Below are positions 2,249 through 35,123 of a stretch of DNA of 40,716 nucleotides, piece by piece (positions within the stretch are counted from its first letter, which is position 1; each line of letters starts with the position of its first letter). A program made the position numbers and the translations under genes. Origin of the DNA: a virus (Duplodnaviria; Heunggongvirae; Uroviricota; Caudoviricetes); IMG/VR virus record IMGVR_UViG_2636415959_000005. One strand, written 5' to 3'. The notes below the pieces were generated by a model. That model was not told the origin of the DNA. It ran no database searches and saw only the letters and a program-made list of their open reading frames with translations.

Positions 2249-3960
2249 TTATAGTAGTCTGGTAATGCTAAATGCAAACGAACTGGAGATTCCTGCTCCG
2301 CTAAGCGTATTGCGCAGGGTCACCCTAAATGTATCTACGCCAATATAAGTAACATCACAACTAACTGAATCAGGCGCAGATATAGGTGTTATCTGAACCA
2401 CATAACCATTAGTAGCTGCTGCGAGCGGATGAGAAAACGTTACATCATACACACCAGTAGCTACCACGCTTACTGAGGACACACCTGGAGCCACATCAAT
2501 GCTGCCATTCGAGTTAATCCTTCCAGAACGAGTAATACTTCCAGCAGAGACAGAAGTAGCCTTGCTGGTTTGCTCCATGAAAGTACAGCCAATATCAATT
2601 ACTTCGCAGTTAGAGCCTGTAACCCAATACGGTCGCGAGGCGCTTGGGACGTAAGAACCTACGCTCTTGAATGTCGTACCATTGAGAATTACAGTTACTT
2701 TTCCACCGCCAGAGCTTGTAATATTTAAGTTGTTTATGGTGTACATCGTACTGCTAACACGATGGAAGTTGCCGCCGTTAATAATTACGGTGACGGGGCG
2801 CGTTCCCGTGTTATCAATGCCAAGGTCAGAACCACCAGCGTTAGCCTCAAAATATGGGTTATTAAGTACCAAAGCACATGACCCATTAAGACCGTTCACG
2901 GCAATCTGCATACCGCCAGTGCCAGTATTACCTTGCGTGCCGTTACCCTCACAGGTAAGGCTATTGATGGTAGTCCCTGCGCCCCATCTGTCACCAAGTA
3001 TACCCCATTGTGTATTCTGGCTTGCGGTTAATCTGTTGACAGTAATTGCATTAAGTTCTGAAAAATCATCAGAATTAAGCACTCGCCACCCAATACGATT
3101 TGCCTGCAGGTACACATTATCCAATTCAGAAGTCAATACAGCGTCTGTTCGTAAACCTTCGCCGTTGGTATGTCCGTAAGATACTATATTCTCTAACTTG
3201 GCATATGCTTTCTTGGTTACGAGAAGACCGTAAGACGTTGCTGAGCCTTTAAGCGTAATATTTCCGAGATAATCATACGCATGTACTCGCTGTGTGCCAC
3301 CAACTGTATCACCGAGCATCTTTAAGTTGAAATCCGAGGCATGGCAGTTAAATATCGTTTCTGCCATATTTTCTCCGGAATAATGAGCACGGACTCCTGT
3401 CGAACCAATAAATTTAGCGTCATAGTTGCCGTAATCAAGAACGAGTGGTGACGCGATATCGTACACCCCTTGCTTTATTTTTAATGTTCCACCGAAAGGC
3501 CACGATGTAAGCGGGTCTTGATATATTTCATTTTTTATTGCAAATAGCTCCTCTTGGAGATTTTTGCCGCTATTAGTGCCAATGTGAGCAGCTCCTTCAT
3601 CTGATTGAAGTAACTGCTTTAACTGATCAGGATCGTACTTCAGCACATTCTGAAAATAGAACTGCTGCGAACCATACGCATCATATACAGCCATTGAATG
3701 GCCTTGCTCAGTTACAAATTTGGCAATCTGCCCGTTGTACACAGGATATCCGGCAGCATTGATAACAATTGGCTGAGAAACAGGGACGTGAGATCCGTCT
3801 TCATTCTCTACATAAACCTGAATCTGGTTTTCAGGATTTACCGGGTCAGTGTCAATTTTTCCGATATAAATTTTGCCATTGGCTACGGCTTTAAAAGAAC
3901 GCGCCATAGTGAAGAGTTGCGAAGGCATGCTTACCACAATATTTGCGGTGATATCTGACA
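2249..3960 (-). CDS. Tailspike protein (P22 gp9-like N-terminal head-binding domain, distinct receptor-binding domain)
   Basis: N-terminus [13 protein letters not shown]…[13 protein letters not shown]…LKYDPDQ matches the P22 tailspike head-binding domain; start set at MSDITAN (track ORF runs to 4009). Confidence 0.85.
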
Positions 3961-28240: not shown

Positions 28241-29080
28241 ATGAAGAATGGTTTTTATGCGACTTACCGCAGCAAAAATAAAGGGAAAGATAAGTGCTCA
28301 ATAAACCTGTCTGTTTTCCTTAATTCTCTGCTGGCTGATAATCATCACCTGCAGGTTGGCTCCAATTATTTGTATATTCATAAAATCGATGGAAAAACTT
28401 TTCTCTTTACCAAAACAAATGACAAGAGTCTGGTTCAGAAGATAAATCGCTCTAAAGCTTCAGTTGAAGATATTAAGAACAGCCTCGCAGATGACGAATC
28501 ATTGGGATTCCCATCTTTTTTGTTTGTTGAAGGCGACACCATTGGTTTTGCCAGAACTGTTTTCGGGCCGACCACATCCGATCTGACAGATTTTTTAATC
28601 GGGAAAGGAATGTCATTAAGCAGTGGAGAGCGCGTTCAGATAGAGCCACTGATGAGGGGAACCACCAAAGACGATGTTATGCATATGCATTTCATCGGCC
28701 GAACAACGGTGAAGGTAGAAGCCAAGCTACCTGTATTTGGCGATATATTAAAGGTCTTAGGGGCAACAGATATTGAAGGGGAGCTTTTTGACTCATTGGA
28801 TATAGTCATTAAGCCAAAATTTAAAAGGGATATAAAAAAGGTTGCCAAGGATATTATTTCTAACCCGTCACCTCAATTTTCAGACATTAGCCTGCGGGCA
28901 AAAGATGAGGCCGGAGATATTTTAACAGAACATTATCTATCAGAAAAAGGCCATCTCTCAGCGCCTCTGAACAAGGTCACCAATGCTGAGATAGCTGAAG
29001 AGATGGCATATTGCTACGCAAGAATGAAAAGTGATATACTGGAATGTTTTAAAAGGCAGGTGGGCAAAGTTAAGGATTAA
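28241..29080 (+). CDS. rexA: RexA (Rex abortive-infection/exclusion system sensor)
   Basis: 279 aa; translation matches lambda RexA as I recall it (MKNGFYATYRSKNKGKDK…QVGKVKD). Confidence 0.9.
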   Translation: MKNGFYATYRSKNKGKDKCSINLSVFLNSLLADNHHLQVGSNYLYIHKIDGKTFLFTKTNDKSLVQKINRSKASVEDIKNSLADDESLGFPSFLFVEGDTIGFARTVFGPTTSDLTDFLIGKGMSLSSGERVQIEPLMRGTTKDDVMHMHFIGRTTVKVEAKLPVFGDILKVLGATDIEGELFDSLDIVIKPKFKRDIKKVAKDIISNPSPQFSDISLRAKDEAGDILTEHYLSEKGHLSAPLNKVTNAEIAEEMAYCYARMKSDILECFKRQVGKVKD

Positions 29081-29095
29081 TTATCAGGAGTAATT

Positions 29096-29530
29096 ATGCG
29101 GAACAGAATCATGCCTGGTGTTTACATAGTAATAATTCCTTACGTTATCGTAAGCATTTGCTATCTCCTTTTCCGCCACTACATTCCTGGTGTTTCTTTT
29201 TCAGCTCATAGAGATGGCCTTGGGGCGACATTGTCATCATATGCAGGAACCATGATTGCAATCCTGATTGCTGCCTTGACGTTTCTAATCGGAAGCAGAA
29301 CGCGCCGACTGGCCAAGATTAGAGAGTATGGGTATATGACATCGGTAGTTATTGTCTATGCCCTTAGTTTTGTTGAGCTTGGAGCTTTGTTTTTCTGCGG
29401 GTTATTGCTTCTTTCCAGCATAAGCGGCTACATGATACCCACTATCGCCATCGGCATTGCCTCTGCATCGTTCATTCATATATGCATCCTTGTTTTCCAA
29501 CTATATAATTTGACCAGAGAACAAGAATAA
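29096..29530 (+). CDS. rexB: RexB (Rex system membrane protein)
   Basis: 144 aa polytopic membrane protein; matches lambda RexB as I recall it. Confidence 0.9.
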   Translation: MRNRIMPGVYIVIIPYVIVSICYLLFRHYIPGVSFSAHRDGLGATLSSYAGTMIAILIAALTFLIGSRTRRLAKIREYGYMTSVVIVYALSFVELGALFFCGLLLLSSISGYMIPTIAIGIASASFIHICILVFQLYNLTREQE

Positions 29531-31386: not shown

Positions 31387-31592
31387 TCAACCACTACGGC
31401 ACCACCCCGCTCATTCGCCAGTGCGTCACGCCCGGCATGATGGCATTGCATGAAGGCCGCACATATCGCGTCTCAGCAGTCATTCAGGAGCGCAAATGGG
31501 TATACCTGCACACTGACGCAGAAATAATCCGACTCAGTGACTGCGTGATTGACGTCCTTCTTGACGGTCACGGCAACCCTATCCAGCACTAA
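31383..31592 (+). CDS. Hypothetical small protein (69 aa)
   Basis: ATGA overlap with the upstream ORF; no homolog recognised. Confidence 0.45.
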   Translation: MINHYGTTPLIRQCVTPGMMALHEGRTYRVSAVIQERKWVYLHTDAEIIRLSDCVIDVLLDGHGNPIQH

Positions 31593-31662
31593 CCACCCTA
31601 TTCAACCGTTCGGCCTGGCATTACGCGGGCGGGATCTGCACATCCAAATTTCAGGAGAAACC

Positions 31663-32664
31663 ATGAGCGAAGTAACGGACTTAACTGTCATCGAAATCAA
31701 GCCGGAACAGGCCCCAGTGCTTTACGTAGCGGGCGGCCTTGACGCGTACCTTGAGCAAATCCGCCAGGCTGTAAACGAAGTGCCGGACCTGTCCACGAAG
31801 AAAGGCCGTGATCGTGTTGCCTCTCTGGCAGCGCAGGTGTCCCGCAGCAAGACGGCAATCGAAAAGCCGGGCCGTGAGTACCTGAAGCGCCTGAAAGAGG
31901 CTGTGCGTCCGGCTGAGGCCGAAATTAAGCGATTCGTTGATGCCTGCGACGAGCTGCGCGATGCGACCCGCCGCCCACTCACCGAATGGGAAGCCGAGCA
32001 GGAACGCATTAAGGCTGAAGAAGCCATGAACGCGATGCACGCCGAAGCGCTGGAGATGAACATCAGGTTCGATCAGGAGCTGGCTGCCAAGTTCGAAGCG
32101 GACCACGAAATGGCTCTACTGATGAACAAGGATTTTGACCGTGACCGCGAAGAGCAGCGCCGTCTGGCGGAACAGGCTCAGCGTGAACGTGATGATCGGC
32201 TGAAACAGGAAGCGGCAGAACAAGCCCGCCGCGATGCCGAAGCAAAGGCAAAAGCCGAAATTGAAGCAGCAGCAAGGCGAGAAGCAGAAGCTAAGGCCGC
32301 AGCGGAACGTGCAGAGCGTGAACGCATTGAAGCCGAGCAACGAGCACAGCGCGAAGCAAAAGAGGCAGCAGAACGAGCTGAAAGAGAAAAGCAGGCGGCA
32401 ATTGAAGCAGAACGCCGAAAAGCACAGGAGGAGGCTGAACGAATCCGGCGCGAGGCTGAAGCAAAAGAGCAAGCCAGAATAGCAGAAGAAAAAAGAATCA
32501 AGGAAGAAGAAGAGTGTAGAGCAAAGGATAAAGCTCACCGGAAAGAAGTAAATAACAAAATACTTGCTGACCTTATCAAGGTTGGCGCATCAGAAGATGT
32601 TGCTAAAAATATCATAACAGCCATCGTAAAAGGCGAAGTATTCGCAACAAAAATAACCTACTAA
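31663..32664 (+). CDS. Hypothetical protein with long charged low-complexity (Ala/Glu/Lys/Arg-rich) coiled-coil region
   Basis: 333 aa from MSEVTDLTVIEIK…; aggag RBS; residues about 160–290 are repeats of the type EAKAKAEIEAAARREAEAKAAAERAE. Confidence 0.7.
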   Translation: MSEVTDLTVIEIKPEQAPVLYVAGGLDAYLEQIRQAVNEVPDLSTKKGRDRVASLAAQVSRSKTAIEKPGREYLKRLKEAVRPAEAEIKRFVDACDELRDATRRPLTEWEAEQERIKAEEAMNAMHAEALEMNIRFDQELAAKFEADHEMALLMNKDFDRDREEQRRLAEQAQRERDDRLKQEAAEQARRDAEAKAKAEIEAAARREAEAKAAAERAERERIEAEQRAQREAKEAAERAEREKQAAIEAERRKAQEEAERIRREAEAKEQARIAEEKRIKEEEECRAKDKAHRKEVNNKILADLIKVGASEDVAKNIITAIVKGEVFATKITY

Positions 32665-33134: not shown

Positions 33135-33842
33135 ATGGATTTGAATAAATTCGATGAGCCATTCAGCCCTGAAGATATCGAATGGCGAATACAGCAAAGC
33201 GGTAAAACACGCGATGGAAAGGTGTGGGCTATGGTGCTGGCTTATGTCACGAACAGGGCAATCATGAAACGCCTGGACGATGTTTGCGGCAAAGCAGGAT
33301 GGCGCAATGAATACCGCGATATTCCCAACAACGGCGGCGTTGAATGCGGCATATCAATAAAGATTGATTCCGAATGGGTAACCAAATGGGATGCTGCTGA
33401 AAACACGCAGGTAGAAGCCGTCAAAGGTGGTCGTTCCGGTGCAATGAAGCGCGCTGCCGTTCAGTGGGGAATCGGTCGGTATCTGTATAACCTTGAGGAA
33501 GGTTTCGCACAAACATCTATCGATAAAAAGCAGGGGTGGCACAGGGCAAAACTGAAGGATGGAACAGGATTTTACTGGCTCCCTCCATCGCTTCCGGGAT
33601 GGGCAATCCCAGCATCAGATAACAAACCATCACCAGAAAATACCAACCAGAAATCTCCATCGGTTGACTGCGAACAAATCCTGAAAGACTTCAGCGATTA
33701 TGCGTCAACAGAAACTGACAAGAAAAAACTCATCGAGCGTTATCAGCGTGACTGGCAATTAATGGCTGGCAACGAGGAGGCGCAGGCTAAATGCGTTCAG
33801 GTAATGAACATCAGAGTTAACGAACTAAAACAGGCGGCATAA
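33135..33842 (+). CDS. Single-strand annealing protein, Rad52/Sak-like (functional analogue of lambda Bet)
   Basis: 235 aa; motif …GGRSGAMKRAAVQWGIGRYLYNL… typical of phage Rad52-family annealing proteins; gaggtg RBS. Confidence 0.65.
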   Translation: MDLNKFDEPFSPEDIEWRIQQSGKTRDGKVWAMVLAYVTNRAIMKRLDDVCGKAGWRNEYRDIPNNGGVECGISIKIDSEWVTKWDAAENTQVEAVKGGRSGAMKRAAVQWGIGRYLYNLEEGFAQTSIDKKQGWHRAKLKDGTGFYWLPPSLPGWAIPASDNKPSPENTNQKSPSVDCEQILKDFSDYASTETDKKKLIERYQRDWQLMAGNEEAQAKCVQVMNIRVNELKQAA

Positions 33843-34310
33843 ATGTATCACTTGGACGGAATTATTAAAAGATTCGAGTCCAGCTACAAAGTTAATGAAA
33901 CAACAGGTTGCTGGGAGTCTACCTATTCAAAAAACAAAGGAGGATACACAAAATTTGTAGCCTTTGGCGTAACAATGCTTTCTCATCGTGTTGCTTTTGA
34001 GCTTTATCACTCCCCCATTCCATCTGGGAAGATGGTTTGCCACAAATGCGATAACCCATGCTGCGTTAATCCTGAACATCTCTTTTTAGGTAGCGCGCAA
34101 GAAAACATGGACGACAAGATAGCAAAAGGAAGGCATCGTGGAGCCAAGAAAGGTCATGCTCATCATGGTGCAAAATTAACAGAGTGGCAGGTTATAGAAA
34201 TTAGGAAAAGACTCTCTGAAAAAGAGAGTCAGTACAAGATAGCAAAAGACATGGGTGTATCTCAATCAATTATAAGCAACATAAAAACTGGCAAGAGGTG
34301 GAGCAAATGA
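33843..34310 (+). CDS. HNH endonuclease with C-terminal DNA-binding region
   Basis: 155 aa; HNH signature [44 protein letters not shown]; overlapping start and stop with neighbours. Confidence 0.85.
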
Positions 34311-34813
34311 GTTCTCGCGGGATAAATAAGGTGATTATCCTTGGTCGGGTAGGACAAGACCCGGAAGTTCGATACTCACCATCAGGAACAGCGTTCGCTA
34401 ACCTGACAATAGCCACGTCAGAACAATGGCGAGATAAAAATACTGGCGAGCAAAAGGAATTGACTGAATGGCATCGTGTTGCTGTATCCGGGAAACTGGC
34501 TGAGGTCGTGGGGCAGTATGTGAAAAAAGGTGATCAGATTTATTTCGAGGGAATGCTGAGAACCAGAAAGTGGAAAGACCAGTCAGGGCAAGACCGTTAC
34601 ACAACCGAGGTTCATGTCGGAATTAATGGCGTGATGCAAATGCTTGGCGGCATTGGCGACAGCAAACAACAAGCAGCCAGCAGGCAATCACAGAAGCCAC
34701 AGCAGCAATCATCACCAGCACAACACAACGAACCTCCGATGGATTTTGACGACAATATACCCTTTGCACCAGTAACTCTCCCCTTCCCTCGTCACGCTAT
34801 TCACGCAATTTAA
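34307..34813 (+). CDS. ssb: Single-stranded DNA-binding protein (SSB) with C-terminal extension
   Basis: [23 protein letters not shown]…TEWHRV…[17 protein letters not shown] parallels E. coli SSB; acidic tip [11 protein letters not shown] is followed by 15 more residues. Confidence 0.9.
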
Positions 34814-34826
34814 TCAGGAGAAAATC

Positions 34827-35123
34827 ATGCCAGCGCCTCTGTATGGTGCGGATGACCCGCGCCGCTGTTCCGGCAATTCCGTATCGGAGGTGCTGGAAAG
34901 TATCAAGAATAATCTCGGCGCGTTTCTTGCTCTGCCACCAGAAACAAAAGCAGAACGGAAGTACCGACGCGATATACAACTCGCAGAAAAACAGGAAAAA
35001 GACCGAATAAACGAAACATCAATCCGACCATTCCGCAAAGCCACATATACCCACTTCCCTGAATATATCGACCCGCGCCTGCGTAATTACCGCTCACGCT
35101 ATGGCGCTATCAGTAATGACTGA
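34827..35123 (+). CDS. Hypothetical protein (98 aa)
   Basis: ORF in the same operon with an RBS; no homolog recognised. Confidence 0.45.

Follow-up and report, generated by a model that had tools for sequence, protein, structure and literature searches.

Introduction

Free-standing HNH endonucleases of the I-HmuI type, encoded in the replication and recombination regions of phages and forming lineages that track their insertion sites, are already well known from T4 (mobE and the Seg proteins), SPO1/SP82 and the Skunavirus phages. Here we analyze a 155-aa open reading frame (ORF) for an HNH endonuclease that lies between the genes for a Rad52/Sak-like annealase and a single-stranded DNA-binding protein (SSB, encoded by ssb) in the IMG/VR virus record IMGVR_UViG_2636415959_000005 (Duplodnaviria; Heunggongvirae; Uroviricota; Caudoviricetes). 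This stretch of 40,716 nt, called the window below, is a complete P22-like lambdoid prophage of E. coli. We consider it likely that the ORF is a homing-type selfish element, namely a free-standing I-HmuI-like HNH homing endonuclease gene belonging to a lineage of the ssb 5′-end.

I-HmuI of phage SPO1 has the same domain order as the window HNH protein and is its best full-length fold match (1u3e). It differs in being intron-encoded within a DNA polymerase gene, whereas the window gene has no intron; the two proteins share about 16% sequence identity, and the zinc site of the window family is the Cys3His site of I-PpoI. The I-HmuI-like free-standing HNH enzymes of Skunavirus resemble the window protein in being encoded in the replication/recombination region of the phage, and their phylogenetic clusters follow the insertion site (PMC12724721), as is also the case for the ssb-linked clade described here. 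What sets the window apart from both I-HmuI and the Skunavirus enzymes is the host element, a temperate lambdoid prophage, and the proposed target, ssb. I-PpoI, a His-Cys box homing endonuclease and the second-best fold match, has a catalytic core that aligns motif for motif with that of the window protein, but it is eukaryotic and encoded in an intron, acts as a homodimer, cuts both DNA strands and lacks a C-terminal helix-turn-helix (HTH).

The mobE and Seg genes of T4 are, like the window gene, inserted between conserved genes or at their edge without disrupting them, and they share with it a target that differs in carriers by a few substitutions and a patchy distribution among close relatives (PMC2988022, PMC2790892); the co-conversion of flanking markers seen with them may have its counterpart here. 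Unlike the T4 type, the window gene overlaps the start of its presumed target gene, supplies this with re-coded first codons and probably with a new ribosome-binding site, and resides in temperate hosts. Two further genes come from the same recombination module. ES18 gp47 has Pfam matches to HNH_3 and zf-His_Me_endon and the same HNH-plus-HTH layout as the window protein, and Sf6 gp26 is unrelated to it in sequence. Unlike the window gene, both (gp47 at 1897-2418 of locus L023) sit 3′ of ssb, between ssb and abc2, and the literature regards both as probably genuine Rec functions (PMC12315714). We found no paper on the ssb-linked HNH lineage in the open-access literature.

Results

The HNH gene is an optional insertion at the annealase–ssb junction

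The early-left operon of the prophage lies on the + strand and contains four tightly packed genes, for the annealase, the HNH protein, SSB and Abc2. The features needed for the following are:

33135-33842, + strand: Rad52/Sak-like single-strand annealing protein gene, 235 aa (Pfam Rad52_Rad22; PHROG 1097, E=1e-129)
33843-34310, + strand: free-standing HNH (His-Me finger) endonuclease gene, 155 aa (Pfam HNH_3)
34293-34303, + strand: Shine-Dalgarno-like AAGAGGTGGAG within the last HNH codons (G-K-R-W-S), read from the sequence
34307-34813, + strand: phage ssb gene, 168 aa from the ATG at 34307 (Pfam SSB PF00436; PHROG 44)
34310-34322, + strand: patch of re-coded sequence in ssb codons 2-6, linked to the HNH gene (comparison with HK75)
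34827-35123, + strand: abc2 anti-RecBCD gene, which completes the recombination module (Pfam Anti-RecBCD_p2 PF11043, 144 bits, E=1.5e-42; PHROG 656)

The annealase stop abuts the HNH start (TAA directly before ATG) and the HNH stop overlaps the ssb start (ATGA, 34307-34310), an overlap that couples ssb to the HNH gene. The HNH gene sits exactly between its neighbors, as the sequence-only reading of this DNA had described it. Relatives with a contiguous annealase–ssb junction, which that reading had named as the comparison to make, were found in six phages and at least 324 E. coli genomes, against 40 genomes with the HNH gene. The six phages are HK75, mEpX2, ECP1, Sf6, Huey and CurroJimenez, where the junction of TAA and ATG runs from ...GGCGGCATAA directly into ATGGCAAGCAGAGGCGTA... 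or, read further, into ATGGCAAGCAGAGGCGTAAATAAGG; the empty junction of the HK75 type has the sequence ...GGCGGCATAAATGGCAAGCAGAGGCGTAAATAAGG.... The genome counts refer to 5426 complete E. coli genomes, which were scored as empty with an 80-nt junction probe matching over at least 80% of its 80 nt. In the 40 genomes that carry the HNH gene (identity at least 98.9% in all), 44 copies are found, all of them beside an annotated ssb, and the four copies studied in detail lie in a prophage context, at chromosome positions that differ between strains. About one in nine modules in E. coli genomes is thus occupied, and in IMG/VR we counted 29 occupied and at least 120 empty loci.

The insertion leaves the surrounding sequence nearly untouched. 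Between the window and HK75 the 708 nt of the annealase gene differ at 8 positions, all of them before the last 162 nt, and the HNH start codon occupies the position that the ssb start has in the empty alleles. The HNH gene is therefore an optional, precise insertion at the junction of annealase stop and ssb start, which re-uses the old position of the ssb start.

A megablast search with the HNH gene gave no match among cultured phages, and by tblastn only Vibrio phage 1.079.O was close; all window-type copies seen so far come from prophages or uncultured viral contigs of enterobacterial origin. Cultured phages yielded no near-identical empty alleles for the Cronobacter/Citrobacter-type copy (L011).

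The first codons of ssb are re-coded in carriers

The presence of the HNH gene goes together with a change in the first codons of ssb. The start reads ATG GCA AGC AGA GGC GTA in HK75 and ATG AGT TCT CGC GGG ATA in the window, which turns MASRGV into MSSRGI and moves both Ser and Arg to the other codon family (AGC AGA to TCT CGC). The two ssb genes differ at 12 of 507 nt; 10 of these differences fall in the 13-nt patch and only 2 in the other 491 nt, so that outside the patch the window ssb is an HK75-type allele. The re-coded start was accompanied by an intact 155-aa HNH gene directly upstream in 41 out of 41 loci, and a re-coded ssb start directly after the annealase stop, as expected if the element had been lost and a resistant site had stayed, gave 0 matches in IMG/VR. 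We propose that the patch is an altered version of the target site that would be immune to the enzyme.

The true ssb start is most likely the ATG at 34307. The GTG at 34298, which the ORF finder chose, is less likely because homologues such as that of HK75 begin at an ATG matching 34307. In locus L010, the ssb start is a GTG (3465-3467) and not an ATG.

The last HNH codons, with the Shine-Dalgarno-like sequence listed above, appear to give ssb a new ribosome-binding site; they encode a GKxW motif that, with the invariant W153, is found family-wide in the HNH relatives. We infer that the HNH gene has taken over the weak, coupled start that serves ssb in the empty alleles. A weak hairpin at 34298-34318, in which the new Shine-Dalgarno region (GUGGAGC) pairs with the re-coded ssb codons (GUUCUCGC) and the start codon lies in the loop, was considered as a purpose of the patch. 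We rejected this idea, mainly because the corresponding patch in Vibrio, described below, uses different codons; the folding energy of RNA at the junctions was also no better than that of shuffled sequence.

Vibrio phages show the same insertion with the opposite codon switch

Cultured phages of Vibrio lentus provide an independent replicate. In phage 1.079.O an HNH gene, whose product is 61% identical to the window protein, lies between ERF and ssb. The related Vibrio phages 1.067.O and 1.003.O have flanks about 95% identical to those of 1.079.O and carry ERF, an 11-nt spacer and ssb, without an HNH gene. Upstream of its HNH gene, 1.079.O still has the original ssb start ATGGCATCACGCGG as a remnant, and downstream of the HNH gene ssb restarts as ATG AGT AGT AGA GGG ATA. 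Comparison of the occupied and empty Vibrio alleles gives 11 differences in ssb nt 4-18 followed by 2 in the next 200.

The switch of Ser and Arg codons in Vibrio, from TCA CGC to AGT AGA, is the reverse of the direction taken in E. coli. A re-coding that is reversed between the two is unlike a fixed translational signal and fits a rule by which the carrier must differ from the local empty allele. This looks like what target-site immunity predicts, and we regard it as the strongest single argument for homing. The likely recognition site would then be ssb codons 2-6 and their neighborhood. A more distant HNH relative, 32% identical, lies between a Sak gene and ssb in Vibrio phage 199E37-1, where its depositors labeled it a 'putative homing endonuclease'.

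Relatives of the HNH protein form an ssb-linked lineage

All seven homologues that we looked up at 51–74% identity, from Cronobacter and other Enterobacteriaceae, Citrobacter, a Vibrio phage, Shewanella and metagenomes, are encoded directly 5′ of ssb; for the seventh, the contig ends inside the downstream gene and ssb was identified from its N-terminal sequence only. The overlap with ssb is ATGA in five of them and 8 nt in the Shewanella copy. The gene on the upstream side is of six kinds, namely Rad52-like, ERF, RdgC/FtsK-gamma-like, a 334-aa protein beside a YqaJ exonuclease, Gp157-like and an unknown 143-aa protein, and one and the same protein sequence (P0002) occurs downstream of ERF genes as well as of Rad52-like ones, and upstream of ssb genes that differ in length. 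These contexts indicate that the constant partner of the HNH gene is the 5′-end of ssb and not the annealase–ssb pair. The sequence-only reading, which saw a selfish homing endonuclease inserted into a conserved gene pair, thus finds support for the selfish element, while the insertion is tied to the ssb 5′-end given the six kinds of upstream gene.

In a neighbor-joining tree of 166 family members the ssb-linked HNH proteins form an exclusive clade. Among 159 distant relatives from IMG/VR and GTDB genomes (36–54% identity) only 4 abut ssb, with a fifth having ssb 2.3 kb away, and the remaining ones have about 115 different downstream neighbors, including lysins and capsid genes; one with 47% identity (P0021) sits among structural genes. 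The GTDB species representatives hold only distant relatives, at 48% identity or less. Judged by these neighborhoods, the HNH family is large and mobile, with site-specific lineages among which the ssb start is one such site, and this start has perhaps been colonized by the family more than once.

The HNH protein looks like a functional enzyme

The HNH protein matches Pfam HNH_3 (PF13392) at residues 48-89 (51 bits against a cut-off of 24.8, E=1e-13), shows weak Pfam matches to zf-His_Me_endon and, at the C-terminus, HTH_38, and matches PHROG HNH families with E values down to 2e-33. Its domains are, in order, an N-terminal beta sheet, a catalytic core with a Cys3His zinc site, a helical linker and a C-terminal HTH. 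The AF2 (AlphaFold) model, with a pLDDT (predicted local distance difference test) of 92.6, has strands at 64-67 and 80-83 followed by a helix at 85-94, which make up a beta-beta-alpha fold. A sequence search of PDB with the single protein gave nothing useful, and the best Foldseek matches of the model to PDB entries are homing endonucleases, with I-HmuI matched over the full length (E=1e-3) and I-PpoI next.

In a profile alignment with I-PpoI covering about 50 residues (E about 0.04), H67 corresponds to H98, N88 to N119 and C69/C74/H79 to C100/C105/H110. The roles of these I-PpoI residues, zinc ligands included, are established. H67 and N88 are 21 residues apart and would be the general-base His and the metal-binding Asn of a beta-beta-alpha-metal motif. 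The residues C23, R49, H67, C69, D70, C74, N76, P77, H79, L80, F81, G83, N88, D91, K95, R97 and W153 are invariant in an alignment of 72 sequences and all kept in the window protein. A loss of catalytic His or Asn residues, which had been named as a sign against the homing endonuclease, was thus sought and not seen: H67, N76, H79 and N88, together with C23, C69 and C74, are intact in the window and invariant in the 72 homologues.

Among HNH relatives, the rate of nonsynonymous substitution (dN) is 0.14-0.44, and its ratio to the synonymous rate (dN/dS) is 0.07-0.18 where dS can be estimated; dS is saturated for most pairs, and these values come from the few for which a ratio could be computed. 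With its invariant ligands, low dN/dS and a confident model whose fold matches are homing endonucleases, the enzyme looks functional. The ORF is full-length and intact in 41 out of 41 loci examined, and the GC content of the gene is 40.4%, against 48% in the flanks.

Two of the prophages with an intact HNH ORF are decaying and have a frameshifted annealase gene, at 2294-3000 of L010 and upstream of the HNH gene in L202. Residue 2 of the HNH protein is Tyr in the window (TAT, 33846-33848) and Ser (TCT) in every other window-type copy examined.

The HNH gene is found on two ssb alleles

The HK75-type and Sf6-type ssb alleles are about 70% identical. Window-type HNH genes (at least 98% identical) are joined to HK75-type ssb at 21 loci and to Sf6-type ssb at two (L208 and L219), where the allele switches within 28 nt of the ssb start. 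At a further locus with the HNH gene (L204), ssb is of the HK75 type for about 83 nt and of the Sf6 type thereafter. Variable co-conversion tracts would look like this, and similar chimeras arise without the HNH gene. In all chimeric ssb alleles seen (L232 and L295 without the HNH gene, L204 with it) the 5′-part is of the HK75 type and the 3′-part of the Sf6 type; the reverse arrangement was not seen.

The 3′-end of ssb and the host ssb gene

The other end of the phage ssb gene also varies, in the following feature:

34766-34813, + strand: 15-codon extension of ssb after the acidic tip ...DDNIPF (comparison with relatives)

A free terminal Phe matters in E. coli SSB. In the window protein the acidic tip is not a free C-terminus, as a further 15 residues come after DDNIPF. 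The ssb genes of Sf6, Huey and CurroJimenez end with the IPF codons, and downstream of them lies a gene for a 155-161-aa 'endonuclease' of the Sf6 gp26 type, a protein that has no Pfam match. Fourteen codons of the ssb extension recur, unchanged, as the C-terminus of this gp26-type gene in the relatives, and in Huey the last ~30 nt of ssb beside the gp26-type gene are also re-coded. Among the loci examined, about 75 have the ssb extension and 22 the inserted gp26-type gene. The SSB of Vibrio phage 1.079.O has a similar extension (APIGLMHNNNLMHCI), from which we suggest that this tail may be conserved and functional and may hide the canonical tip of SSB.

Between ssb and abc2, at least three alternative genes occur in relatives, of the gp26 type, of the gp47 type or for a DnaQ-like exonuclease. 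The last of these is present in about 18–29% of the HNH-occupied modules and in 28% of the empty ones. We considered the HNH protein as a stand-in for a missing exonuclease and rejected this, because the presence of the DnaQ-like exonuclease is independent of the HNH gene.

The chromosomal ssb gene of E. coli K-12 is identical to the empty phage junction at 27 of its first 30 nt (L191 326-355 compared with L002 1681-1710), and in the segment that is re-coded in HNH carriers host ssb and the empty phage site differ at 1 base. With such similarity, the host gene could be a secondary target of the nuclease.

The recombination module and its surroundings

The annealase has a Rad52_Rad22 N-terminal annealing domain (PF04098) at residues 4-136 (91 bits against a cut-off of 20.3, E=7e-26) and SSB has an N-terminal OB fold (PF00436, 125 bits against a cut-off of 26, E=2e-36), which together with the PHROG matches bears out that the module is built on a Rad52/Sak-like annealase and an SSB. 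The sequence-only reading had these two stand in place of lambda exo/bet/gam, which is right for the two proteins but leaves out abc2; with an Abc2 gene in the module, the Gam-like role is filled. This copy of the module has no exonuclease gene, and no promoter or terminator belonging to the HNH gene was found on the + strand.

Elsewhere in the prophage, the genes for portal, terminase, major head and DNA-transfer proteins are on the - strand, and a cI-like repressor, RexA/RexB-like proteins, a DnaB-like helicase and an integrase are also encoded. The exclusion genes at 28241-29530, RexA-like (279 aa) and RexB-like (144 aa), adjoin the cI-like repressor gene. Upstream of the module, 31549-32664 encodes a 371-aa protein rich in Glu, Ala, Arg and Lys that belongs to PHROG 1376 (unknown function); its RefSeq relatives are annotated as 'TolA'-like, and the AT skew over the gene is very high.

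Discussion

We suggest the following course of events for a homing-type element at this site. The HNH gene would be transcribed with the early-left operon, and its product would bind an asymmetric site over the first codons of an HNH-less ssb gene by means of the N-terminal sheet, the zinc-stabilized His-Me finger and the C-terminal HTH. It would then nick or cut such an ssb gene in a co-resident related phage or prophage. Recombinational repair of the cut could then carry into that genome the HNH gene together with its re-coded patch and more or less of the adjoining donor sequence. The annealase and SSB used for this may be those of the phage itself, and the re-coded patch would shield the carrier from its own enzyme.

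Several observations weigh against homing, and they should be set out together. No decayed HNH copies and no empty re-coded sites were found among the loci surveyed, and hence there is no sign of a cycle of gain, decay and loss. Chimeric ssb genes of the same polarity occur in 3 of 84 loci that have no HNH gene, so ordinary mosaic recombination can give patterns of this kind and the evidence from tracts is not unique to homing. Moreover, 21 of 24 window-type copies are on one ssb allele, which means that most of the spread could be vertical or due to ordinary shuffling of modules. The patch could in principle tune the translation of ssb. Finally, the tight translational coupling to ssb, which persists over 50% divergence of the protein, and the strong purifying selection would be equally expected of a protein that acts together with SSB.

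This last point leads to the explanation in which the HNH protein is a working nuclease of the recombination module, acting with SSB and the annealase, for example by making ends or single-stranded DNA for recombination-dependent replication, and is kept for the benefit of the phage. In the clade members looked up, the gene is tightly packed with ssb and the overlap is conserved, and the purifying selection on the protein is strong. Known HNH nucleases acting with recombination proteins are P1 Ref (PMC4713147) and PhiNM1 Gp16 (PMC12817073), and a 2025 survey is inclined to this view where HNH genes are tightly packed into lambdoid Rec modules, yet warns of HNH mobility (PMC12315714). We nevertheless hold this explanation to be unlikely, as about 89% of otherwise near-identical E. 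coli modules do without the HNH gene, its presence is independent of that of the DnaQ-like exonuclease, its GC content is atypical for the module and distant family members are scattered over unrelated phage modules. A partner of SSB would need no re-coded ssb start with a codon switch that is reversed between E. coli and Vibrio.

Alternatively, the HNH protein could be mainly a weapon against competing phages or prophages that lack the HNH gene, whose ssb region it would cut in the manner of marker or superinfection exclusion, or against the ssb gene of the host, with spread of the HNH gene as a by-product. Genetic marker exclusion is known for the I-HmuI-like HNH enzymes of lactococcal Skunavirus phages (PMC12724721), the HNH gene is placed in an early operon, with which it is presumably expressed, beside anti-RecBCD functions, and the near-identity of the start of K-12 ssb to the empty site (27 of 30 nt) extends to the part that carriers have re-coded. 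Against this, all 44 E. coli copies lie beside an annotated ssb and the four examined in detail are in prophages. As the leading role of the enzyme we think this very unlikely; at the same time exclusion and homing would both result from one kind of cut, and for this reason a weapon would be a variant compatible with homing rather than a true alternative to it. We regard it as extremely improbable that the ORF has lost its activity and simply hitchhikes with the module. Homing endonuclease genes often decay after fixation, and nothing more specific speaks for a relic here; against it stand the intact ORF in 41 out of 41 loci, even in the prophages with a frameshifted annealase gene (L010 and L202), the retained catalytic and zinc residues and a dN/dS far below 1. 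We therefore favor a homing endonuclease gene of the ssb 5′-end, to which the observations on the two ends of ssb can be added in a more speculative way.

In such an extended scheme, which we find rather doubtful, selfish nuclease genes would settle at both ends of the phage ssb gene and re-write its termini. At the 5′-end this would be the HNH gene, with a re-coding that co-evolves with the local target, and at the 3′-end the gp26-type gene, which would set whether SSB ends in a free acidic tip or in the 15-residue extension and so toggle the protein-interaction tail of SSB. The 5′ enzyme might in addition nick the host chromosome on induction.

An element of this sort is of an expected kind for a phage and will come as no surprise to specialists. 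Less common here are the presumed ssb target, the temperate lambdoid hosts, the cassette of re-coded start and ribosome-binding site, and a replicate with the opposite codon switch. If active, the protein could serve as a tool: it would combine a small size (155 aa) with site-specific nicking or cutting, and its natural target would be known. We point out that occupied and empty alleles differ essentially by the HNH gene and a 13-nt patch, which, with the Vibrio replicate, would predict the recognition site almost to the base. Recent work on lambdoid modules has taken HNH genes for nucleases that probably work in the module; for the ssb-linked lineage the comparison points to a selfish element that would target ssb, and we suggest that annotators should not score it as the nuclease of the module.

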